Part shown: positions 1 through 22,994 of the stretch, one piece after another | How the letters are laid out: each line of letters begins with the position of its first letter | How positions within the stretch are numbered: position 1 is the stretch's first letter | Assembly: GCA_026025075.1 (NCBI GenBank) | Contig: JAPEUI010000073.1 | Span: 62,001 to 89,505 of the forward strand | DNA length: 27,505 nt | Source of the DNA: Vezdaea acicularis | Lineage: Eukaryota | Reading direction: 5' to 3' | The notes under the pieces: generated by a model | Databases searched by the model: none | Told to the model about the DNA's origin: nothing | Seen by the model: only the letters and a program-made list of their open reading frames with translations | Translations under genes and position numbers: made by a program

Positions 1-3000
1 AGGTATGCCCTCTCCGATTGCTTTGTGTTCGTCACAACCGTCAATTGACCCCCTTTAGCTTCAAGTTCGTCTCAGAACGCTGCTTGATAAGAAGAGAATG
101 ATGCAATCACGACAAGAGACAACTTCCAAGGTCTCCTCGACTTTCATCACGCTCGAAGAAGGCTTTCAACAATTCAACAACGACTTGAACAAGCTTCAGG
201 TGGGTTCCGTCCGCCAAGCGCTGCAAGACTACGCACTGATTCGCACAGCAATTCGTCGAGGTCAACGCGACTGCTTTCTCGAAGATTCTGAAAAAGGTTG
301 GTCGAAGAATCGAGAGCCATTCTGACTATGCTGACCATTTTCAAGTGGGACAAAACCTCCAAGGTCGGCAATGCGGTCGTGTTTGCCTGGCAGCTTCGGC
401 TGACTCCTCTCCTAGTCCCGAACCAAAGAGCTCTACCTCTCTCGTGCCGTCGACGTGCAGCCTTGCTTTAATCGGGATGTCATCAGCGAGCTCTCAGACC
501 AGGCGACGACCAGCCTCTTGGAATTAGGGGCATGGGCTGAGGGAGAAAAGGTGAACTTCGGAGCGCGCTCAGCTGATCACACTGTAACCAGCCAGCGAAT
601 CGGGACCGAAGAAAATGACACAGACTCCCATCTGCTGGATGCGATCAATTCAGGAAACCTTTCTACCGTACAGGATTGGATTCGAAGGCTGAGGGAGTCA
701 CCAAACGCAAAAGAGCGCGTTACGAGGACTTTCCTGACGACGATCAATGAAGCACCGGAAGACACGCTAGATTTGCTACTTGCAACAGACCTTGTAGACA
801 TACAATCGGAAGACGAGATAAACGAGAGGAATGTCCTCCACGAGGCGGCCATCTCTGGGCGCATGTTCCTCTTGAGGACAGCCCTCTCGAAGGGCGTTAA
901 AGCCTCAAGGGTTGATGTGTATGGCCGTATCCCTCTCCACTATGCCTGCATGCATGGAAGAGTCGACATGTTGCAGACTCTGGTCGAATCGGACCCGCAG
1001 ACTGTCAACATGATGGACCACGATAATTTCACACCACTCATACACGCCGTCGTACATCACCAACTCAGCTGCGTCCAGCGATTGATTTCCTTTCATGCGA
1101 AAGTAGATCCCAACTCCGATTCCGATCACATCCCGTTGAACCTTGCCTGTCAGCACGGGTGTACATCAATCACAGAGGTCCTACTAAAGGAGGGGGCAAA
1201 GGTTCTTCCAGATGCCGAAGGCCTTTACCCACAACATCTCGTTGCTCGTTCGGGCAAGACCCCTGAGCTCCTTTTGGTCTTGAAGGGCTACGGTGTAAAC
1301 CTGAACGAGATAGATAAGATGAATCAGTGGACACCTTTGTTTCATGCGTCAAGTGAAGGTCATGTAGCTTGTTTGCAGACTCTTTTAGACAATGGAGCAA
1401 GGGTGGATATACTGGATGAGAAGGGGCTTTCGGCAATGTACTACGCTGCCTGGGAGGGTTACCTCGAGTGTATGAGATTATTAGGTATTGCTGGAGCCAA
1501 ACCAGATCCTGCACGATTGCCCCTTTCTGCAACTCTGATGCCCACGAGTGTCACACCTGAGCCGATGAGTTTGGAGGCGGATAGCATCCCTAATCTCGTA
1601 CTCCCTCCCCCGATACTTCCTCTCCGACGATACGGACACAACTTCCTGGACAACAAGACCTTTGTTCAAATCAATTTCGAAGGCATGGGCTCAGACCCGA
1701 TTATCTTCTACCACGACAGCAAATATCCCGCCGCTCGTCTCACCATATCTTCTAAACATTCAGACCTCATCCCCCGCAACGTTCTCCTCCCCTTCCAAGA
1801 AGATACGAAAATCATCTCCTTCCAGATCGACAACCTCGAATCGTTCGCCATCGACTTCGACGTCTTTCCTACCTTCGGTGCTCGTGTCATCGCGAAGACG
1901 GTCGCCCTTCCGAGCATCTTCTCTGCCCTGACAAGCAGCTCAGGATACTGCTGCCTGCCCCTTTTCGACCCACGCTTGCGTGCCATTGGCCAGGTCAGCT
2001 TCACTTTCCAGGTCATCAAGCCATTCCACGGCATTCCTCTCGAGATCACCCACTTCGCCACGTACTGGAAAGCCACTAGCCAGGATGACGACCTTCCTGC
2101 CGCGCTGATCACTGGATCCAGCTTATCTGGGGAGTATGTCCGCCTATGCGTCCAACTCACCAATGATGGCGTACCTGTCATCTGCCCTTCTTGGACCGTC
2201 AACCATGGCGGCATCGACATCCCAATTAGCCAGCTGACACACGATCAATTTCGCTTCGTTGGAAAGCACAAGGGTGTCACCGGCAAACTAGCGCCCGTCC
2301 CGGAGCATGATATCGCGGCCATGCACCGTGTCCTCGCCGCCTCCTTCTGCACCCTCGAAGAAGCACTCGCATACCTCCCCGCCAGCATCCACGCCGAGAT
2401 CCACGCCCTATACCCCACCGTTGTACAGGAGAAGAATCTAGGGCTGGGACCGGCACCAAACTTGAATACCTTTGCAGACAACATCCTGAAGGTCGTCTTT
2501 GAGCACACACGACATTCTCGAGAGGAAGGCGCACGGAGTGAGTTTGGACGGGGATTAGTTTTCAGCAGCTTCAACCCAGACATCTGCACGGCGCTGAACT
2601 GGAAGCAACCGAACTGTACGTAATCTCCTCTCCTCTCCTCAAGAGGAACTGTAGGTCTGACACAAATTAAAGATCCCGTCTTCCTCTGCAACGCTCTCGG
2701 CGCAATCGAATCTCCCGCTTTGTCCTCTACAGAGCCTGCCGTAGCTGGCATACCCGCTTACCGCCCCAGAGACGCAAACGGTGGCGGCAAGAACGCGATG
2801 AGCGTCAAAGAAGCCGTGCGCATCGCGCAAACCAACAACTTCATGGGCCTGATCTGCTCGCGTCGACTTCTCGTACGACCTCCCCCCTCCCTCCTTTTCC
2901 CCTTACAAAAACAATTCATATGAACCTAGCTGACCACCCCTCCTCCCGGGGCCTTTAGGATCTCGTCCCCGCCCTCATTCGCTCCGTCAAAGTCGCCGGA

Positions 3001-3138
3001 CTCGTCCTCGTCATGGATACTGCCGCCGAAGCCAATACAGGGGATGCGCAGATGGGCCACCGCCCCACTCGGAAGGGCGTCGATGGTGTACTAAGGAGGG
3101 AAGGTGTGCTTAGGTTCGAGGAGACGATTAATATGTAG
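1..3138 (+). CDS. PHO81: SPX-ankyrin-GDPD-like cyclin-dependent kinase inhibitor PHO81/NUC-2 (5'-partial)
   Basis: Exons 59-199, 249-296, 346-363, 416-2615, 2673-2872 and 2959-3138, all flanked by GT..AG introns. The spliced SPX end reads LNKLQQFVEVNATAFSKILKKWDKTSKSRTKELYL. Ankyrin repeats follow (GRIPLHYACMHG, NFTPLIHAV, QWTPLFHASSEGH), then PPPILPLRRYGHNFLD and a degenerate GDPD-like C-terminus (LVFSSFNPDICTALNWKQPNYPVFLCN). Stop TAG at 3136-3138. Confidence 0.93.
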
Positions 3139-3180
3139 GCTAAGTGGAACTGCGAATCAGTGGCACGGAATGAGCGGGAA

Positions 3181-3229
<49 letters not shown>
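3181..3229. repeat. Poly-G homopolymer (G49)
   Basis: 49 consecutive G in the intergenic/3'UTR region between the convergent PHO81 and RAD1 genes. Confidence 0.9.
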
Positions 3230-3230
<1 letters not shown>

Positions 3231-3641
3231 GGAAGGGGTTGCTAGGATGGGCTCGCTCGTGCGGTGGGGTGGGGTGGAGGCGTTTTGGGTTTTTGGGGAA
3301 GGGGGGCGGAGAAGATTGACAAGAGAAGGGAAGGTGAGAGTGGAAAGCGAAAAGATAAAATTCAATCCCGATAGAACCCCCTTTTTTCCCCATTCTATAT
3401 CGCTATGGGACGTGCGCGTGGAGTCGAAATTGTATATGGCTGGAGTACCGAGTTCCTTGCGGCCTTCCCTTCGCTGCGGAATCTTCGCTGTGCTTCTCCC
3501 TTGTCCTCTCCTGTCCTCCCTATATGGGCTGCTCATCGACTCACCCCTGTTTGAGCTCATTGTCGATTAACCTCGCATTTCTCTTCTTCGTAACACTCCT
3601 GCTCCCATCAATCCCCACCCCCTGGACCATCCAAAAAAAAG

Positions 3642-6600
3642 TCACTCAAAAACACTCCTATTAAAAAACTCCCAAACCTGCCTCCCCGCCTCTTTCCCCA
3701 GGACCTCTTCGATCCTGTCCCTCTCCCAATTCGCCAGCTCGAGAAGATCGCGCGCCTCGAGAACGAGGCGACTGATATTCTTCGCCGACACGCCCTTGAC
3801 GGCGCGGAGCATATCCTGGGGTTCCGCATTCCAGACGGCAGGGCCGCCGGCCTCGGCGTCTTCGCCGGGTTGGAGACCGATTTGGACGGCGCGGAGGGGG
3901 TCGGGTTCGGGGGCTTGGGTCTTGAGGGTTTGGAAGATGGAGGCGGTTTGGTAGGGGGAGGAGGACCAGATGATTTTGAGGCGGGGGAAGGCGAGGGTGA
4001 GGAGGACGAGTTTGGATTGGAGGTCGGATGGGTTGGCGGCGGACGCGAGAGAGGTGGGATTGGAGTAATCTTGGAAGGGCTGGGGAGGGGGTGAGGGTTT
4101 GCGTTAGCGGCCAGGGATGTTCAAGAGGGGGGGAGTAGGGGAAGGGAGGAATGACACACCTCGAGAGTAAAGCTTTTCCCGACATCGAACTCGATGAGGA
4201 GCATGGGGCTCTTATAGTGCTGCAGCATCGTCTCGGCCTGGTTGTACAGCCGCCCGTCTTTGAAACTGCTGATCAGGTCTTTCACGCTTTTGCGCTCGAT
4301 GCAGATGTCCGGTGTGAGGACGTAGTCGCCGACGGTCAGGAGGCAGGGGACGACTACTATGCTGGAGCCGTGCAGGAGGGAGGGGAGGGACGAGCGGAAT
4401 TCGCGCACGTCGACGACGACGCGGGGGGGCTCGGCGGTGGCGGCGAGGCGCCCGCCGCCGGCGATGCGCGTGTTGACCGTGCGGAGGAAGGCTTCTTGCG
4501 GGTCGAGCAGCTGGGCGTCGGTCGTGAGTGTGATGGCCATGTTCTGAGTTGGGTAATGTTAGCTGGAGCTTCCTCTGGTTCTGAATGTTGATGGCGGGCT
4601 TACCCCCTTCTCCTTGATCAGCCTGGTGAAAGAGTCCTTCTCCCGCCTCACGGCGCTGAGGTATCTTTGCTCTTCTACTGAGCCACTGTAGTACATGAAG
4701 TAGACTCGAACGTTCCGGTCGCTATGTGAGCTGCGATAGACTTCCACGCGCCGAATGAAAGCTGCATCCGGTTCATACATGATGATGTATCTTGGCTTCA
4801 CCTCCTCCAGGACGTGCTCGTCAAGGTCCCCATCGTACGCATGGACAAGAACAATGTCATCCATTTCGTACAACTCAAAGTAGTCTTCCATATCATCCAA
4901 AGGGTCGGCAGCAATCTCATGCTTTTGCTGCCCTTCAGACTCGGTAGGTCGAATCTCAGCCACGAGATCCCTGATAAGTGAGGCATTGTCCTGAGCTACT
5001 TGCAAGCTCCCGTTCGAGCTGCGAGAAGGTCCAGTAGCAACAGATCCACCCCCACGAACTCTCCGACGTTTGTTCGGGGGCGCCTTCCCCTGCTGTCTAC
5101 CGCCTCCTGTCTTTGATTCCGCCGCCCCATCCAAAACCTTCTGATTCTCGGCGAAGAGTGACGCGCTGACTTTGGCAAAATCTTTCTTCCAATGGAGATA
5201 GTTTCGAAGCTTTCGCCGCATCATGAACGACGCAGAGGCTTCTGTTTGCAGCATTTCTTCATCAGATCCTGTTTCAGGATCATCCAAAGAGACATGCTGG
5301 GTCTGCAAATACTCTCTCAGCTGCCGGCAAGTACCTTCATCCGAGCACATTATCAGAATCGTACCATTGGAGTCATCGCGAACCATAGGATTGAAATAGG
5401 CATCACGCTCTATCTCCTCCAATATCTCCGAGAGCCAATGCCATTTGGGCTGCTCTTCCAGGACTGGTCTCAAAGAAGTTGGTAATGCGTCGCCACCAAC
5501 AAGATTGCCGTCCGCTTTTCCAGTGTATACTCTTCGCTTTGCAGTATCAAAAATGATATGTGCTGCGTCAAGGAAAAGCCATGGAGACTGGCTCTGCCGC
5601 GTAGACCCTGGTGGCGGGGAGTGGGCTGCTAAGATGGTATCCAGATAGCGGTTGAACGTAACCGCATCATATGTCAGCAGAGAGCTTGCCTCATGGTTAG
5701 CAGAGACGCTATAGTGAGGGTTGTAGGGCCAACTGACTGGAGGATCTGGCGCAAAATCGTCAAGTCGTGTACAATCTGACGGGTCTTGTAGCTAACACGA
5801 TGCCAAACCGGATCAAGTTGTCTCCTGATGACGGTATCAAAGTTCTTGTGCAAGGCGCTATCCAATGTCCATTCATCCATTTCCAGCCCAGAGTTCGCTT
5901 TCTTCAGCTCCCCTATGCTAGCTTCAACGCATTCGAGAATGGCATTCTGAATATCTCGCATGTTTTCTGTCATGGGCACTTCGAGCTCGATCACCTCTGC
6001 CTTTTTCCTGCCCTCCAGAGACTTCGCCACCGTGACATGAAAGCGCGGCCATAGCGACGGCTTTCGAAGGAAAAGATTCCTCAACGATGCGGCAAGAGGT
6101 GAGTAGCCACTAAATTGCTCGGGATTATCGGAAAATGCCTTGAGAAATCCTTGCTTGTTGTTCTGTCTATACACTCGAAGAATAAAAGCCTCGGTCGAAG
6201 TAGCAATGACTTTCTCTGCGTGCAGAACTACCATACCAGTGATTGTTTGAGGATCGAGAAGACTGGTCAGGAGATCCACTACTAGTATCCTCGACGTGAT
6301 GCTGAAGATCCCTCCTTGACTATACATCTTTTCCCTTGTTCCCACACTCATCATATCTGTATTCACGACGCTTAAGCCCCGAGCGTTGGACGCCATGCTT
6401 ACTGCAGCATGTTCTGCCAGTGCCTCTCCGATCCAGCCATTCTCGCGCTCGTCCGCACCGACGACCACGATCAAGTTATTTCCAGCTGCATCATAAGAGT
6501 GGAGAAGGTTGGTAACAATGCGTAAGAGGCCAAGGCCTCGTGCAAGAAGCACAAGCTCATCTTCAGACCGAAGCTCATGAAATAGGTCTTGCTGGTATTC

Positions 6601-6701
6601 CTGGCCAATGATTTAGTGTCGATGTGAGGAGAACGTCGGGCGAAACCTACAAGTGGAAGTGAAAGCTTTACGGGTAGCTTTGCATCGTTTTCTGATGGCA
6701 T
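3642..6701 (-). CDS. RAD1: DNA repair endonuclease XPF/Rad1/Rad16/MEI-9 (ERCC4 family), about 938 aa
   Basis: Exons 6701-6651, 6600-5738, 5684-4604, 4543-4160 and 4079-3642 total 2817 nt, in frame. Motifs: helicase-like SITSRILVVDLL, LWPRFH and LEEQPKW; ERCC4 nuclease VVVDVREFRSSLP..VGDYVLT..ERKSVKDLISS..GRLYNQ..LLIEFD; C-terminal HhH-like region. Confidence 0.95.
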
Positions 6702-7039: not shown

Positions 7040-9945
7040 TTATGTTATACCATCTGCTTCACCCAAAGCCTTAACTACTTGCTTGAGCAATACACTCCCA
7101 ACATTAGGAGGTACGGCGTTCCCAATCTGCCTCTTAATCCCAATAGGGCCGAATTGGTGTTCTAGTGGGAAACCTTGAAGGCATGCAAATTCCCTTAGCG
7201 TGAAATTTCTTTGCCCACTTGGGTGGTAGTTGCCATCGCCTCCTTTCGTCGTGATACAACTCCTTAGCGGTTCGTTACCATTATATGGGGGCTTGGTTTG
7301 TCGCAAACGAGCCTGAGCCAAGTCGTGATTCGCATGACCTATAGGTATGTGAGAGATGAAGCTATTTACCGAAGTGTAACGTGGTAAACCTAAAGGATTT
7401 GGGCAGTCTCTGGGAACGTGCGTCGGTTTAGGAAAAGGGGGAAGTATTTCTCCTGGACTACGATGTGTCAGCACAGACGGAGTAGAGTCGGGTTCATCTA
7501 TAGAAATACCATGATGCTATGATAAACAAGCGATTCCTAGACTGCACAAGACCGTAATCTGCACAATTGATGATTTTCCAGCGGACGCTAAAGCCTAGAT
7601 CAGTAAACATGTGAACGACAGTCTTCATGAACAGAGGATGTCTTTTCATGAGACCGGAGGTTTGTTCAAGTGTGACAACCCGCGGCCTTGCCTTTTTGAT
7701 GACTTCAGGAATCGCAAACAGACTAGCGGTATTCATCTCGTCGTCCTTTCCCTGGATCGTGTGCGCCGCCGAAAAGAACTGACATGGGGGAGACAGATGG
7801 AGAATATCCACTACATCATTATCCTCTTTCAGAGTGACAAAATGGCTTGCCTCAGCCAGACAGTCGTTGGCCTCGGGGAAGTTCAGACCAAAAGATCTAA
7901 TAGCGTGCTTGTCAAAGTCGAAGCCCCACTGTACTCTAAGATCTGCTAGTTTGGCAGCACGTGACATACCCCCAGCTCCGCAAAAGGCATCCCCGAACGT
8001 GTAATGATGCCCACGTTGCTCAACATTACCGAATGGATCTAATAGTTTTAGACGTTTATGAACTGACTGAGCCAGCTTTTGTCCTGCTGGGGATAAACCG
8101 TCTGGGGTGCACGGTGCACTCCATGATGAAACATCCTCTCCAGCAGTACTCCATACGTCCTCGTCAAGATAGGGCTGCCGTCGCCTTCGACGGGGGCTAC
8201 TTGTTGGCGTAGTGTCATAGCCAAATGAAGCGTTGCTAGATGGGGTGAAGCTTGTAAAAGGATCACTGGCAGTAAGATCGATAGTGTTCGGAACAGATAG
8301 ATTGGGGAACAGTCGTCTATTAGGACCCAATCCAGCCTCAGAATGTGAAGTTAGGTCAATAAAGGCCAGGTTCTTGTTGCTTTGCGCCTTAACGGAGGTT
8401 GCAAAATTAGGGTAGTATTCTTTATTGCGGCCACGACGATTTTGACAGGGTAAGGTCTGAATAACATCCGATGGTAGATTATGCTGAGGACGTCTTGTCG
8501 GAGTTATGGGCTGCATACCGTTGCGCCGTGATGAAGCAGGTGCCGCCAGGATATGTTCTGGTCGCCAGCGAGATCTTAAAGTCCTGTTCGATAAGCCCAT
8601 ATTTTCATCGATATCTTCTTCCTGTAGCTTCTGTATGAACTGGTCACACCATGCTTTCTTTCGACTATCTTGTGCGTTCTTCGCAACGGCAACAAACTTC
8701 CATCGACAGATAAGATCATATTCACTGTAAACGACATCATCCGAACCACTCAAGCCACGGTCCCTGAAGGACAGCTCGGGGAAATCGCGATTCGTCATGA
8801 TGAGGTTCCTTTTCTGTCCAGTCTTGAGCTCGTTCAGGGGTACCTCCTTTATCGCTTGTTCTTTGGCAGACTGCTCGTTGCTCTCGTCAAATTGAGAAAT
8901 CCAGCAGAGCTCGTTTCTCCGGTTGGGAAAGTAGCCTGGCATAGCCTTTGTTCGCCAAAATATCCACCCTCGTAAAACAACCTCCATCGTCTCTTTATGC
9001 CTCAAAATACTGCGAATTCGAATGAACTCGCCGTTCTCCAATTCGAGTGCATCGCCAATCTTCAAGTTGTTGTCAAACCCGCACCGCTCAATCTTTGTAT
9101 ATGGCTGAGAAGGGAGACCTTCATGAGACATGATGCTACTATCACGTAAGAAAGCATGGACATTCTCACCCTCATCCCTCAGATGATTCTGGTATTCAGC
9201 TTGGGTGATTTCGTCCTGCTGCAAGCCAGTAAGGTCGATGACTGACCCTTCGGTATCCGAATAATCCGAAACATCCACCAGATCAATTATCTCAGTATTT
9301 ACGGCGTCTGGTCGAGCGGCTATCGAAACTCGAGACGTTTCGGGAACTGGTGTGACCTGTAATGAATACTTTTTGGAGGAATGTGGCAACAAAGGTGATG
9401 CACGACGGGCATTGGTTGATCTATTAACATCTACTAGCTTCTCTTGAGTTCGAGGCCTTGATTCACCATTGAGAAGGGATTGAACGTTGGTATTAGCACT
9501 GTTTGCCGGACGCATCGCGTGAATAGTCTTCGAAGAGTCATTGACACGATTGCGAGAAGACCCCGCTGTATGTAGCAACGATCAGTCAGACACTAAGCTC
9601 CAAACATAAGCTCTCATTAAGCCCAGTTCAGGGGAAACGGAGAGTGTGTGAAAGTGGTTTGTGGTGCTTACAAGTACTGCCTGAGTTCATGTTCGTGGCA
9701 CTAGACGTATGGTTTACGCGTGGATTGTAGGTAGCTCCTTTAGCTAAAATTGACTTCATGTTAGTGATTTGGTTCATTGATCATGTCAATATTTGAGTTG
9801 GAGAGAGGATTGTTCGACGGATAAGCTGTATAAACGTGAAATGAGGACCATAAGGCCAGAGCTATATCTCACCCTTACCTGGGACTTCATTCTGTGGAGA
9901 CTTGCCATCCTCAATGACAATAGCGTCATTTCGCGAACCCGACAT
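7040..9945 (-). CDS. rid: RID/Masc1/DmtA-family C5 cytosine DNA methyltransferase, about 870 aa
   Basis: Exons 9945-9879, 9743-9672, 9565-7510 and 7457-7040 total 2613 nt, in frame; the two short 5' exons are less certain. Motif I DAFCGAGG, motif IV HLSPPCQ, motif VI LEQTSGL (EQT in place of ENV is diagnostic of the Masc1/RID class), motif VIII QSRNRLFIIASCPGE, motifs IX/X RNFTLREFACLQGFP..QIGNAVPP. Confidence 0.9.
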
Positions 9946-14625: not shown

Positions 14626-16380
14626 TCATTCGTTGGCGTCCTCTTCCTCATCTTCATCCTCAGTTGGCAGCTCGTCATCTTCCTCAATATCACTTTCATC
14701 GCTATCAGGTGCTTTCTTCTGACCCTTCTTTCCTTTCGGCTTCTTGGTAGGACTACTTCCAATCTTTCTTTTTCCCGTCCGCTCGACTAGATGGTCGATA
14801 ATGCATCCCTTCTCCCAACCCTCCGCACTTTCAGATGTTGCCGCTCTGCACCTTGGACAAGTCTTGCCGTGCCTTATGAGCAATTGGTGTAGAGGATATT
14901 TGAGGTTGTCTGGGATGCGGACCTCAAGATGGCTATAAGCAGAATTTCGGGTAGCTTTCTCGCGAGGAATCCAGTTGAGCCATTTGCAAAGGCGGAAAAC
15001 ATGAGTGTCCACTGCGAAAGACGGTCGTTGCATGCAGAAGAGAAGGACACATGATGCGGTCTTCGGGCCAATACCAGGATATTTTATTAGCGTGTTCAAC
15101 GCCTCGTCTGACCCAAGGGCGTGCAGATGGTCGAGTGAAAGAACACTCTGTTCTGCTCGAGCAATTTCAATTTCTCGATCAGCCTTTGTCTCATTCATGA
15201 TTCCAGGGGGTCCCGCAGCATCTCCTTCCTTCTTTGCTTTCAATAGACCTTCTCGACGTTCCATATTCTCAACATAGACAAGATCCAAAATAGCCTTGAT
15301 GTTCTTGCTCTTAGCATTAGCAAGCCCACCACTTTTGATAGCTTCGAAAACTTCCTTTTGATCTGCACGACGGACCTTATCCCAGTCGACACTTCCTTTA
15401 CCGATGCCGTCATCCAGCAGACCGAAGGTATTGACAAGACCTTGGAAGGCTCGACTAGAATTTGCGCCAGTAGTAGCTGCGCTGAGCAAGGTCCGAATGA
15501 GAGCATCAAGAATCGAAGGAACTTCGCCGCACCCTGAGACGGTTGTTGAAGGAGCAGGAATTGTTACTGGCGCTTTCACCTCTCCATGAACAGAAGAAAG
15601 GAGGTCATTGACAATTTGACACTCCTCTGGCGTCGGATGTTCAAAATCCGGATAAGGAGTCTCGCCAGGCGTCAAGCCGTACGCATTCGTTCTGGCCTTT
15701 CGACCTTTTCTTGGAGATTCTTCGGTTTTAACAAGGCCATTCGCTATTTTTTGGGCAGCCTGGATGTTTTCGGGGTCATTCAGCTGGTCAGCAGCGCTGA
15801 CTTGGGAAGGTTTGGTGTTCTCCCGGGGTCTGTTCATACGCGTTTGTTTCCGCTCATTCTGGCTCTCTTCAATCACCTCTTCTTTGATATTCCTCTTAGG
15901 AGAATCTGTTTGAGCCCCAAGCTTTTCCTCTGCTGTCACTTTCTTGGCTTTGCTCGCTTTCTTAAGAGGTAGCGGTTTGCGTTCCAGTTCCCCAACGACA
16001 TTGCCGTTGACATTTTGAGGTATCTTCCGAGCTCGGGACCGCTTTACAGACGGGCCTTTGGCTGCAATGCTATCTTTAACTTGATGCGCTACAACTTTTG
16101 TCCCCAAATTGTGGGGAAGTTCGTTGATATCTCCAAGCTCTATAGGGGCTCGTTTACGCTTACGAAGGACGGGGCTCAGAGGTGTGAGTAATGATCCATT
16201 ACCACTGCTCTTCGGCTCTGGTGTCTGGGCGAAGGCAGCCTTCTTGGTCTGTCTTGTAGCTCTTCTTGGCTTTGGTGTGACTGGAGGACTTGATAATACC
16301 GCATGTTCGGCTTCCCCATCTGGTGAGTTCTCGATTGTAACCCCTTTTGCAGCGGCAGAACGGGTCCCACGTGCACCCAT
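14626..16380 (-). CDS. HhH-GPD base-excision DNA glycosylase (endonuclease III/DEMETER-like), about 584 aa
   Basis: Single exon from ATG 16380; the TTG-started upstream extension in the ORF track is probably not real. HhH motif LIKYPGIGPKTASCVLL, catalytic Asp in FAVDTHVFRL, LIRTLLSAATT, HGKTCPRC. Long basic N-terminus and acidic tail. Confidence 0.88.
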   Translation of the reverse strand: MGARGTRSAAAKGVTIENSPDGEAEHAVLSSPPVTPKPRRATRQTKKAAFAQTPEPKSSGNGSLLTPLSPVLRKRKRAPIELGDINELPHNLGTKVVAHQVKDSIAAKGPSVKRSRARKIPQNVNGNVVGELERKPLPLKKASKAKKVTAEEKLGAQTDSPKRNIKEEVIEESQNERKQTRMNRPRENTKPSQVSAADQLNDPENIQAAQKIANGLVKTEESPRKGRKARTNAYGLTPGETPYPDFEHPTPEECQIVNDLLSSVHGEVKAPVTIPAPSTTVSGCGEVPSILDALIRTLLSAATTGANSSRAFQGLVNTFGLLDDGIGKGSVDWDKVRRADQKEVFEAIKSGGLANAKSKNIKAILDLVYVENMERREGLLKAKKEGDAAGPPGIMNETKADREIEIARAEQSVLSLDHLHALGSDEALNTLIKYPGIGPKTASCVLLFCMQRPSFAVDTHVFRLCKWLNWIPREKATRNSAYSHLEVRIPDNLKYPLHQLLIRHGKTCPRCRAATSESAEGWEKGCIIDHLVERTGKRKIGSSPTKKPKGKKGQKKAPDSDESDIEEDDELPTEDEDEEEDANE

Positions 16381-17446
16381 GAAGCTGAGAAGGCAGACTT
16401 CAAGTTTTCTTTGAGATAAATTTGTAATTAAAGTCTGTCTCTTCAACTCCGCAGTCAATGCAGGGGTCTGAAGGCTTCGAGTTATTTGGCGGTCGGTCCG
16501 GGTCTTGACTTTAGAGTAACCTCGGCGACAAAGCACAGTAACGCTCAATTTGCATTCTAAACCTAGGAAAAATATGGCTGCAACGGTAATATCGATAAAC
16601 AAATGATGCTAGGTGGTATTTGATAAGTTATAGAAATCTGCGGTTACTGATGCATATGCTATCGAGTAAGTACGCTGTGCTGGGCTGAGATGATGAGGTC
16701 ACTGAAAAGTTCCGTGGCAGCCCAAGGGCGTTAGCGGCCAGCTGATCACCAACCAAAATATGATGTACGAGGGTACACTTCAATAAATTCAAAATTGGAG
16801 TTTTGAAAGATTGGAAAAGATCTGCATTACGACCTACTTCGATTCACTGGAACCTAGGGCGATGATAAGAGGAGAGCTCTAGCCTTGAGACCTTGCAACG
16901 GGTATCGTGACCAGCGCAATTGCATTAAGGGGTGGACGCCTAGACTCAGAAAGCCTGCGTACCTTTTGTTATTTGGCCGTCAAAATTACTTTGAACTAGC
17001 AACTTCATGACACTAATCAAAGTATATCTCATGTTCTACTCTTCTATGTCTGATTGATCCAATGATGCCTGAAATAGGGGCTTGGCAGGCTAGTCTTCTT
17101 CCTGTCAAGTGTGAAAGTCAAAGTGTGTTGGACCACCACCCCCACATCCTGTATTCTGACTCCAACTCCTCTCACTCAACTTCCTTATTCATCCAACACT
17201 TTACTTCACCTAAGTTCCTTCTTCGACCAACTTCCTTCTTCACTCAACTTGCTCCTTCCCCTAATCTGTCCATACTTAAGATCCATGTAGATTCACTAAA
17301 GGTTCTAAACCTTAGTGGTCAGGCACATCGCGTTTCGCTCGTCAATGCACTTCTCATGATTTCCGCCACACATTTGACGCGCCTATACTTTTCGAAAAGC
17401 TTCGCGTCAATCTCCTAGGATTTCACGCGGGTTGTCCCCCATCACG

Positions 17447-19526
17447 ATGCCTGGTGGTCTATTCGTGTCCCAAAGCTCGGCCGGCACGCCGAGCCCGCGT
17501 AATTTTCCGGTCAAAAGCGAGCCTACAGACGAGCGGGATGACCTCTACGACGAGGACAGCGAAGCAGATGGGGAGGCTGGATTCCAGGCTGATGAGAATG
17601 GGTACACACCTGTAGAAAAGCTGCCATACTCAGTGCATAAGGAATTTTCAATTTGGAATATATATAGTGGGTTATACCAACAAACAGGTGTGGGCAGAGT
17701 GGGTCTTGGAATCTGTTGACCCAGCATCAACAAATCCACCTACCCCTTCAAATGAAAACTTGCCTGACTTAAGCAGCATATGCCAACACTGAGTTACTGG
17801 ATTTGGATGCAGAATACCAAAGGGATGTGGTATGGACAGGTTTGTTGTATCACACAGATTCTTTGTAAATGTTTCTCATTGTGTGATAGAACCAAAGGTC
17901 GTGGGCCTGATAGACTCGATCGAGAGTAAATCTACCCTAGAATGAGCAGTAAGGAGGTAATATTAATGGCGCAGAGGGACACTATGTGCCGCCACTCTTA
18001 TTCAACGTCGAATATATCGATCACCCACAAGGCGAGCGGCGTGCGGATGGTTCGATCAAGAAAGTAGTCAAGCGCACCGTTGTGGACGGGAAGCAGCGCA
18101 TCACTGCGATTACGAAATTCATGAATGGCGAGGTGCACTTCAAAGATGGCGCTGGAGTCAGATGGTGAGAAATCACCGTTCAGTTCCTCTATACTCAGGG
18201 TCGGTATCATTAAGTACTAGCCTAGGTACTACCAGAATCGGATCGGGCCTGATGGATTAGAGGTCCATTCGAACCGGCGAATTTTGAGTGATGAATGGAA
18301 ACAGCGATTCCGTAATAAGAAATTGATGGTCCATGAGTTCACTCAACTAACTCTCGAGCAACAACGGGATGTTTTTGCGCGAGTTCAAGAAGGCACTCCT
18401 CTTCTAATCGCCGAGAAGATCTTTGCAACAGACGGGCCCTGGCAGCGGTATGCGAAAAAGATCCTCCAGGACTTCCCTGAGACAACTAAGTGTGAGTTCG
18501 GGTATTCCCCCAAGCAAAACAAAGAATAGCCACTGAAATTCATATCAAGTGGCGAAGAGTGCGCGTGCAATAGACTTTCGTAACGTTCTAGCTGCGATGA
18601 TGCAGGTCCACGAGGTAGACAAGCCGACTAGCAGCCGTGGCGTACCCACTTTCGTCGGGGTCTCTAAGAGACTCCAACTTTTCTGTAAGGAGAACCATGA
18701 ATATGGTCCGGACTTGTCCATTCGTATGACGAGAGTCTTCCAGGCCATGGATAAGTTGCGCCTACAATACCCGGAGACGTTCCAGAATAACGCGTACAAA
18801 GCGGTCAGGACGTTTTCCCCGATCGAATTTATTGGGATAGCTGTCATTCTCTGGTTATATCTTGACAGCCGTTCTCTCAAGTTGCTTTCCAAAGACATCT
18901 TGTACGTACGAAGGGAGCTAAGAAACGTATACAAGGATTTAAAGAACAACAACAATACATGGAAAGACGTATGGTCGCTGATACAGGGCATCGAGTCGCA
19001 ACGTGGTGCCGTGCCATATGTGCGTGAGGAACAACCAAGAAGCCCCTTTCGAAACGACGACGCTATCGAGGATCGCATGACAGATAACAACGTTCACGGC
19101 ATGGAGATTGACCCTCCACAGAGGGCTCATCCGTCCCGGGCTCCTCTACCTAAGTCGACACCCAGCAAGGTTACGAAAAGCAATCCTACATCGAAATCCA
19201 GAATGGGCCCTCCAAGCGCTCCTCGTTCTAATGGAGCTACCCATAGCGCGAATCCATTGAAACATGAGCCGTCACATCCTCCATCTACTCCTATTCCTCT
19301 AAGGGGACAATTCACCACTGGAGCCAACGCAAGCAGTCCTATTCTCGCAAATACAACAAGTTCGAGACCAGAGAGTACTCCTACAACCACGCCGGGTGGG
19401 AATATGCGTTCCTCACTACGTCAGCAAAGTGTTGATCTTGATGCTCCACTACGAGGCGCTAGAGCTTTGCAGCAAAAACGGAAAAGAGGGTACTCTGCTG
19501 TCTCTACAGAGGATGGTGGTGACTAA
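17447..19526 (+). CDS. DUF262 (ParB/Srx-like, GmrSD/SspE N-terminal type) domain protein, about 583 aa
   Basis: Exons 17447-17666, 17777-17839, 17890-17925, 17975-18164, 18226-18491 and 18550-19526 total 1752 nt, in frame, with all introns GT..AG. The spliced product reads LDLDAEYQRDVVWTEPKVVGLIDSIEKGHYVPPLLFNV..VVDGKQRITAITKF..QRDVFARVQEGTPL, matching the DUF262 QR, DGQQR-like and FxxxN-like motifs. Confidence 0.85.
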
Positions 19527-22187: not shown

Positions 22188-22994
22188 ATGTTTGGTCGGC
22201 TTTCGTTCCCCTTAAAATGTTCATCTGTGAGATCTTTAAGCTTCAACAAAGCTTCACGACTACACAAGCTTCTACCGGCAACAAAAACAGTTATACAGAC
22301 CTCTTTCTATATCGGAGCACCCTCCCCATTCACACCATCCATGTGGCCGAGACGTAATTCTTTGAAGTTCCAATCTGGGGGCCAACTTTCCTCTTTCGAA
22401 ACTTCTGCCACTGCGTTATAGCGTTACGCAGCTGTTTCAAGGAATATGGCTTCCCTCACCAGCAAAGCCCGTGAACAATGGCTTAAGGTTCCGGGCTTAT
22501 CACTTCTGGTCATACGTTACTCCTCAATTCGACCGCCCCGACATGCAGAGAGCGCTTCGGGGCATGGAGACCCTACCGACCCTCGCTACATTATAGAACG
22601 ACGTAGGGCCGATGCCTATGCTGCTCGTTCAGATAGACTGAACTGGCTAATCAACATTTCAGCATCTACTGCGCCCAAAAAGGTCGTCAGATCCTGGATG
22701 AAGAGGCGATTCAGGAATGCCATTGAACAAGCATTACGGGCAAGGAATTTGGACTGGGAAGGGCAACCGCTGGAGGGTAGATTAGGTAGCTTGGCAACGG
22801 CGGACAGTCCTAGGGGATACTTCATATTATTTCTTCAGAAGAAATCCGTAACTGCAACGTGGGAACTTGTGAAGAGAGAAGCTGATATATTGGTCACCGC
22901 TGTCATAAGACAAGGTCAAAATCCAGAACCTCAGCGCAGACCATCTCGACCGCAAACTAATAGACCCTCGTTAAAATGGAAAACTTCGCCCTAA
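22188..22994 (+). CDS. Hypothetical protein with a mitochondrial presequence-like N-terminus and an RnpA (RNase P protein)-like motif, about 242 aa
   Basis: Exons 22188-22353 and 22432-22994 (78-nt GTAATT..GCAG intron with a weak branch site). The first 55 residues are rich in R/K/S/L and have no acidic residue. Core reads WLINISASTAPKKVVRSWMKRRFRNAIEQAL..YFILFLQKKSVTATWELVKREADILV. Confidence 0.65.

Follow-up and report, generated by a model that had tools for sequence, protein, structure and literature searches.

A DUF262 gene with five introns in the fungus Vezdaea acicularis and its family of nuclease-free ParB-type proteins

Introduction

To our knowledge, nucleotide-gated DNA switches of the ParB type occur mainly in prokaryotes and their elements, and sulfiredoxin (Srx), the familiar eukaryotic relative, has abandoned DNA. 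What, then, is the DUF262 gene found in a 27,505-nucleotide stretch of the Vezdaea acicularis genome (the window), and what might its product do? The window sits on contig C287 of the 18.9-Mb assembly and carries ordinary fungal genes. The original prediction, made from the sequence alone, treated the DUF262 gene singly and proposed that it encodes a nuclear sensor of modified DNA or nucleotides, of GmrSD/SspE type.

In the literature searched, in which few subscription papers were covered, we found no study of the corresponding fungal family or of its viral link, and no relevant paper joining giant viruses with DUF262 or GmrSD. The only fungal mention found there was a marker table in PMC5406856. 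PMC4619093 lists three eukaryotes among GmrSD hosts, and the word "fungi" is absent from its main text.

Results

Gene model

The DUF262 gene is split into six exons (Table 1). When spliced, they form 1752 nucleotides encoding 583 amino acids and a stop codon, with zero internal stops, and all five introns, of 49–110 nucleotides, are of the GT..AG type, in agreement with the claim that the gene is intact. Shifting the donor of intron 5 by two nucleotides upstream introduces 19 stops into the model; an in-frame alternative donor can be read from the sequence at 17688. The four motifs quoted in the original prediction are all present in the spliced product. The latter is colinear with full-length fungal proteins (best E about 4e-81, 34–38% identity) and could be aligned with 149 of the 149 non-self matches listed, 47 of which extend from residue 90 or earlier to residue 395 or later.

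Table 1. Features of the window; positions are counted from its first letter.
Feature	Position	Strand	Remarks
Presumably RAD1-like gene	4121-6612		no Pfam match
C5 cytosine methyltransferase	7040-9581	-	one of three such loci in the genome; by its layout we take it to be RID/Masc1-like
HhH-GPD DNA glycosylase	14626-16608	-	divergent, about 1 kb upstream of the DUF262 gene
Exon 1	17447-17666	+	start codon, acidic low-complexity head (aa 1-55, 24% D/E), first DUF262 strand
Intron 1	17667-17776	+	110 nt; weak donor (GTGGGT); branch site CTGAC; 39/47 homologues ungapped at the junction
Exon 2	17777-17839	+	63 nt; motif I Y87-Q88-R89-x-x-x-W93 at 17815-17835, by motif the counterpart of the SspE sensing patch
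Intron 2	17840-17889	+	50 nt; weak donor (GTTTGT); site also used by other fungi
Exon 3	17890-17925	+	36 nt; L101 and S104 (17916-17918), each conserved in 45/47 homologues
Intron 3	17926-17974	+	49 nt; site also used by other fungi
Exon 4	17975-18164	+	YxPP; motif II D144-G-K-Q-R148 at 18085-18099 (predicted NTP site)
Intron 4	18165-18225	+	61 nt; site also used by other fungi
Exon 5	18226-18491	+	variant motif III F220-x-R-V-Q224-x-G-x-x-L229 at 18374-18403, part of the predicted dimer interface
All-helical domain	18431-19010	+	aa ~239-412; spans intron 5; occupies the position of the ParBDB DNA-binding domain
Intron 5	18492-18549	+	58 nt; acceptor AAG; interruption at this site in a few other loci, e.g. 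L192, L221, L238 (by eye)
Exon 6	18550-19526	+	stop codon at 19524-19526
Disordered S/T/P-rich tail	19011-19526	+	KRKR (NLS-type) at 19476-19487
190-aa ORF	22422-22994	+	no significant Pfam match

Junctions 1, 2, 3 and 4 are ungapped within three residues in 39, 45, 44 and 42 of the 47 long homologues, respectively. At junction 5 this holds for 17 of 47 only, because a clade-specific three-column indel falls at that point; the BLAST alignments of two homologues, P0012 and P0011, pass it without a gap. The same intron sites are used elsewhere: among the readable distinct fungal metagenome loci, an intron at the same codon and in the same phase was observed in 22 of 55 for intron 2, 24 of 57 for intron 3 and 19 of 50 for intron 4, and twelve loci have all three. 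These counts are over 60 distinct loci out of 80; intron 2 of the window gene itself has so weak a donor that it fails the search pattern. A group of soil-metagenome homologues (L211–L226 and L232) has the core without introns 2–4 in eukaryote-like gene surroundings.

At the level of sequence, the six-exon, five-intron gene is confirmed as real, its junctions resting on homology. Contamination or recent transfer is ruled out by the introns, the shared intron sites and the placement of the protein in the fungal clade (see below), which agree with the initial argument that the introns speak against a bacterial contaminant.

Motifs, domains and tails

The consulted parts of PMC12065111 and PMC4619093 give the ParB-DUF262 motifs as QRxxxW, DGxQR and FxxxN. 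In the fungal family, motif I has the form YQRxxxW, with Y, Q, R and W each present in 47 of 47 full-length homologues. In motif II, DGKQR, each residue is retained in 46 of 47, and the lysine in 143 of the 143 fungal matches that have the motif. Motif III is FxRVQ in all 47 and FxxxQ in the window protein, with Q replacing the published N. This Q is seen in 138 of the 143 fungal matches, the motif being unread in the remaining five, and the Q-type motif, a conservative variant, also occurs in 14 of 46 non-fungal rows.

The Pfam family GmrSD_N matches exon 4 alone with E 3e-5 and 24.6 bits, under the curated cut-off of 33.2, while full-length homologues pass the cut-off (best E 3.9e-20, 73 bits). 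The DUF262/ParB-type module, proposed from the letters alone, is supported; its fold is considered below. GmrSD_N is found in 59 of the 83 scanned homologues, and the 24 misses appear mostly to be gene calls starting past the domain. Neither GmrSD_C nor an HNH family was found by Pfam in any of the 83, the [DE]H[ILV]xP motif was not found in the 583-residue model, and the V. acicularis genome, whose assembly may be incomplete, yielded no match to GmrSD_C; the earlier statement that no HNH motif is visible can thus be extended to the scanned homologues. Other searches were barren: exon 4 had no match among PDB sequences, NCBIfam provided nothing meaningful, none of 88 candidates from a word-index search matched exon 5, and the same search with exon 6 returned only the window's own fragment.

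The predicted S/T/P-rich tail and its KRKR motif were found as described, with an S/T/P content of 36% and the motif at residue 568. An NLS-type motif, K[KR]x[KR], is present in 39 of the 41 homologue tails; after shuffling, the share of tails with it is 18%. Of the 39 homologue heads, 33 contain an acidic patch. The protein is probably nuclear, as had been suggested.

Predicted fold and homodimer

The fold and dimer predictions were made for P0005, a homologue from Candelaria pacifica that is 38% identical to the window protein. In this model the block of residues 61–410 has pLDDT mostly above 90, the parts outside it are disordered, with the tail below 50, and the region past DUF262, earlier called likely helical, consists of confidently predicted helices. 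In the PDB the model is matched best by BrxU, ParB proteins and SspE, at Z of only about 8 and TM about 0.2. BrxU is the first of them (E 4e-6, Z 8.4, rmsd 11.4 over 294 residues, TM 0.18); PadC has Z 8.1 with rmsd 2.9 over 98 aligned residues, and SspE has Z 7.4. The N-domains of ParB, Noc, KorB and PadC are among the leading structural matches, and BrxU, PadC, ParB and Srx head both structure searches. P0005 is predicted to combine a ParB/Srx fold with a helical domain.

The latter domain is less easily assigned. Its similarity to SspE_CTD (Z 5.2, rmsd 4.5 over 145 residues) is within helical-bundle noise. The profile of NsnA from the Menshen defence system runs into it for two of six homologues (P0121, P0015), with no independent profile match for the domain. 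A profile of the helical domain only gave a best E of 7.1 among 4030 viral and prokaryotic ORFs, and in the Atlas the domain alone retrieves unnamed clusters with a recognition value under the reliable range.

Sulfiredoxin (Z 6.0) and the free serine kinase (Z 4.2) share the fold of P0005, and Srx is, by the consulted parts of PMC4619093, an earlier case of a ParB domain put to a new use in eukaryotes. The family could then be an enzyme of the ParB/Srx fold directed at small molecules or proteins, for instance sulfiredoxin-like, serine-kinase-like or an NTP pyrophosphatase, with no role on DNA. However, these scores are below those of BrxU, SspE and the ParB proteins, DGKQR stands in place of the Srx signature, the NLS-type motif is conserved and the helical domain is retained. 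We regard such an enzyme as very improbable.

Two P0005 cores modelled with ATP and Mg yielded a homodimer score of 0.62, compared to 0.00 for three controls, with contact agreement of at least 92% between runs and partner pLDDT of at least 85; the prediction was made without an alignment. Of the solved microbial proteins, 21 of 30 homodimers and none of 23 monomers attain the mark set for homodimers; for eukaryotic proteins the figures are 17 of 29 homodimers and none of 30 monomers. The predicted dimer runs through the N-domains, with the YxPP and motif III surfaces, and its interface residues S111, Y117, P119, P120, R223 and V224 (P0005 numbering) are invariant or near-invariant in the family. 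The pass may come from likeness to the solved ParB and BrxU dimers: among eukaryotic dimers with no older solved relative, only one of seven reached the mark.

Fungal family

A HMMER scan of the helical region (18552–19010 of the window, residues 260–412) against 1.84 billion representatives retrieved 249 clusters at E ≤ 0.001 and 137 at E ≤ 1e-10; the family therefore comprises at least 249 clusters at 50% identity. Many members bear the automatic UniRef label [quoted passage not shown]. The named ones, among them Pseudovirgaria, Westerdykella, Tuber and Lasallia, belong to the Dothideomycetes, Lecanoromycetes, Lichinomycetes sensu lato and Pezizomycetes and to Neolecta. Thus the prediction of a real fungal DUF262 gene holds, but the gene is no one-off: the family is widespread in the Ascomycota and already annotated automatically. 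The nearest Atlas cluster (88 members, score 0.95) is made up mostly of Basidiomycota, so a basidiomycete counterpart of the ascomycete family is probable.

These proteins agree with the window protein in architecture, motifs and intron sites, at 30–38% identity over the core, and the window copy shows no difference in kind, being a divergent member with an end branch of about 1.0. Hence the window gene is an ordinary member of an annotated, apparently unstudied fungal family. It is single-copy, the V. acicularis genome having one GmrSD_N match. No name from the Sordariomycetes, Eurotiomycetes, Leotiomycetes or yeasts occurs among the 120 of 252 matches listed; as evidence of loss this is weak, the profile being rich in Dothideomycetes. 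The absence of the usual model fungi among the same listed matches may be the reason why the family has been overlooked.

The predicted dimer through the N-domains and the ParB, Noc, KorB and PadC matches would also suit a clamp that NTP closes on DNA in the manner of ParB, or a loader of chromatin, which would recognise no chemical mark and serve ordinary chromosome tasks such as loading, spreading, segregation or repair. The single copy, the long retention and the shared introns would fit such a housekeeping gene. On the other hand, by sequence the family belongs to DUF262 and not to canonical ParB, its YQR patch of the SspE type does not vary, and the missing sordariomycete, eurotiomycete and yeast names among the listed matches hint that the gene is dispensable. 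A clamp of this kind is unlikely, though it deserves to be kept in mind.

Relatives outside the fungi

Foldseek was run against a library of viral models, containing no cellular ones. The top matches were proteins of Yasminevirus, Hokovirus, Tunisvirus, Catovirus and Indivirus (E 1.5e-17 to 7.2e-15), with target TM of 0.53–0.68 over 356–547 columns, far above the TM of BrxU. When the fungal core profile was applied to the ORFs of 80 viral and 80 prokaryotic loci, the viral contigs L018 and L011 came first and L004 and L007 were in the top seven, all four with the Q-type motif III; bacterial DUF262-HNH proteins and a Patescibacteria protein, L085, were interleaved with viral contigs in the ranking. 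In the reverse search with a viral profile, the fungal proteins follow directly behind the viral rows, L085 among them. The profile-profile homology between the fungal and viral proteins stops in the first helices past DUF262, and the model of the L018 protein, whose helical half is weak, adds a DUF262/ParB match only. Plasmid sequences contributed little, none of the 36 tblastn records spanning 80% of the query.

In the phylogenetic tree (67 rows, 177 columns) all fungal rows group together (100/100), and nine giant-virus-like rows are their sister group (97/86). After removal of eight long rows and seven fungal rows the support for this sister relationship is 99/94. The window protein is inside the fungal clade (100/100; 100/99 in the reduced tree), beside a Vezdaea protein. 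The phylogeny proposed in the original prediction, with bacterial and fungal DUF262 proteins, places the gene within the fungi. By the AU test the pairing of the fungi with the bacterial DUF262-HNH proteins L108 and L151 is rejected (p-AU 0.007), while that with the Patescibacteria protein L085 is not (p-AU 0.168). Non-fungal rows were found with fungal-derived patterns and comprise the best 80 of 162 per collection, thinned to 46; the named BFVD giant-virus proteins are outside the tree, and it took in no named basidiomycete sequence.

The giant-virus label is based on GVMAG contig names for four rows and, for L007, on an adjacent poly(A) polymerase of the APMV type; for L004 and L011 it comes from weaker neighbour clues, and for L018 and L008 from clustering alone. 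In the genome of one viral contig checked, about 6% complete, there was no match to A32 or capsid.

The stand-alone DUF262 proteins of giant viruses, including those of the IMG/VR contigs L004, L007, L011 and L018 and of the GVMAG loci, share with the fungal family DGKQR and the Q-type motif III, and none of the seven scanned has an HNH. They differ in being single ORFs of 330–440 residues with 17–20% identity to the fungal proteins and no long S/T/P tail. Among the relatives sampled (best 80 of 162 per collection), these proteins, and not GmrSD or SspE, are the nearest non-fungal ones. Since the fungi are sister to the viruses and not nested among them, the transfer may have gone either way.

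Several sampled loci are of interest in their own right. In L085, the Patescibacteria protein closest to the fungal and giant-virus group among the sampled rows, the DUF262 gene comes after a C5 methyltransferase, a second, similar-looking ORF and an HNH gene (491–5332), an arrangement resembling a restriction-modification locus. The loci L104, L108, L151 and their relatives form a bacterial clade with DUF262 proteins of about 455 residues that combine the Q-type motif III with a classical HNH (PF01844), not DUF1524, at the C-terminus. In the GVMAG locus L046 (2974–4822), a separate HNH_2 ORF directly follows the DUF262 gene, a possible split sensor–nuclease pair.

Comparison with known systems

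GmrSD/BrxU and SspE share with the window family the predicted DUF262 fold and, at the level of residues, the NTP-site and sensing positions. However, they have DUF1524/HNH and DGQQR, whereas the fungal family has DGKQR and no HNH, and the whole-chain TM is about 0.2. The label "GmrSD/SspE-type" hence did not survive as the closest description: the best defence-system profile is another, and the nearest sampled sequences and structures are giant-viral. The family does not belong to GmrSD or SspE, yet is built like the sensor half of those systems.

The functional residues are known from two proteins. For SspE, the parts of PMC9646914 and PMC13251355 consulted ascribe sensing of the mark to the YQR patch (Y30/Q31/R32; PMC9646914), report that it needs Y30/Q31 and Y63, and assign NTP hydrolysis to R100 and R133, with the arginine of DGQQR needed for GTP hydrolysis. 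For BrxU, the consulted parts of PMC8565348 state that S42, Q101 and R102 are required, Q101 and R102 for NTP hydrolysis; that nucleotide binding shifts the dimer; that Q35A and R38A are without effect; and that NTP hydrolysis is not stimulated by DNA. By motif, the counterparts in the window protein would be Y87-Q88-R89, S104, Q147 and R148.

A further reading is that the ParB fold itself cuts DNA, so that an HNH domain is unneeded. The consulted parts of PMC4619093 cite nuclease activity for two proteins of the ParB/Srx fold, Osa and Arabidopsis Srx, and the Tunisvirus structural match is labelled "Putative nuclease". However, this label is an annotation, not an assay, and in BrxU it is the C-terminal HNH domain alone that accounts for cleavage (PMC8565348, parts consulted). 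A cryptic nuclease is the least credible of the alternatives considered.

In PADLOC the best profile for six of six full-length homologues is Menshen NsnA (E 1.5e-13 to 2.3e-18), which consists of ParB-DUF262 and ParBDB (PMC12065111). Like the window family, NsnA has a nuclease-free two-domain layout and the motifs QRxxxW and DGxQR; it differs in N instead of Q in motif III, and the introns and eukaryotic tails are confined to the fungal side. Nuclease-free DUF262 genes are found in Menshen, Dazbog and PD-T4-2 and, according to the consulted parts of PMC10952713, are needed for defence in the first two. Together with the viral affinity of the nearest sampled relatives, this would suit a sentinel against viruses or transposons: on sensing DNA that is foreign or marked, it would set off a separate fungal effector, the role proposed for NsnA in Menshen. 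No NsnB ABC-ATPase or NsnC effector gene is adjacent to the window gene, which is flanked by the HhH-GPD glycosylase and a zf-C2HC5 protein; nor are the neighbours of the family conserved. Immune genes usually expand and diversify, and the single copy and slowly changing core are unlike them. We consider a sentinel distinctly unlikely.

Genome neighbourhood

The window genes include, besides those for a PHO81-like ankyrin/GDPD protein, a glutamine amidotransferase, eIF1A and CHS5, several suggestive of DNA modification and repair (Table 1). A cluster of DNA-modification genes, with the HhH-GPD glycosylase and the RID-like methyltransferase as partners of the DUF262 gene, was rejected as a candidate: either neighbour is found in none of 80 fungal loci, 33 of which are at least 10 kb long. 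Across these loci the only recurring neighbours are MPV17-like and WH1 genes, once each. The richness of the window in DNA-repair genes is probably due to chance.

With three C5-methyltransferase loci and a TET/JBP-like ORF in the genome, it is plausible that modified cytosine is available in principle in the host, with no tie to the DUF262 gene. The TET/JBP-like dioxygenase ORF, on contig C3 (L257:1980–2720, plus strand), matches Pfam Tet_JBP with E 3e-8 and 33.4 bits, compared to the cut-off of 34.9. Beside it there are Mutator-transposase-like and SWIM ORFs (L257:3176–4126, minus strand). Basidiomycetes show pairings of TET/JBP genes with transposons, and this case recalls them in an ascomycete.

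Discussion

We consider it probable that the fungal family is a nuclear, NTP-switched, DNA-binding dimer that does not cut. The full statement, in which this nuclease-free dimer is gated by NTP, reads DNA in the nucleus and also recognises a mark, is a tentative one, somewhat short of an even chance. Mark reading is the less certain part, because Q35A and R38A are harmless in BrxU and the motif is common to proteins with different ligands. By analogy, the product may be inferred to be a sensor of modified DNA; its sensing residues are conserved, but they are common to DUF262 proteins of different ligands.

By comparison with BrxU, SspE and NsnA, the helical domain would hold DNA, and the YQR pocket would check a chemical mark, most likely a modified cytosine (of the 5mC or 5hmC class) or a lesion. 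Binding and hydrolysis of NTP at DGKQR would switch the dimer. The disordered head and tail may relay the signal to fungal chromatin or repair proteins, replacing the absent nuclease. The gene would have been acquired once, in early Ascomycota or before, from a lineage common with the DUF262 proteins of giant viruses.

A bolder scenario has a giant virus (Nucleocytoviricota) passing a ParB-DUF262 gene to an ancestor of the Dikarya, in which it was retained as an NTP-gated nuclear protein reading DNA that is modified or foreign. We regard it as decidedly improbable, more so than the sentinel. According to the consulted parts of PMC13533422, no giant-virus infection of Dikarya is known, and the question is raised of what defends them; the domain is not mentioned in those parts. 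If the scenario is true, the family would be a eukaryotic nucleotide switch of the ParB type acting on chromatin and a candidate for that defence.

The family is conserved in Dothideomycetes and Neolecta as well as in truffles and lichen fungi; its NTP and sensing residues are intact, a dimer is predicted, and it carries a nuclear signal. Should it turn out to read a mark on DNA, it would be an unrecognised fungal epigenetic reader, and the giant-virus link would add an ancient exchange of genes between viruses and fungi.
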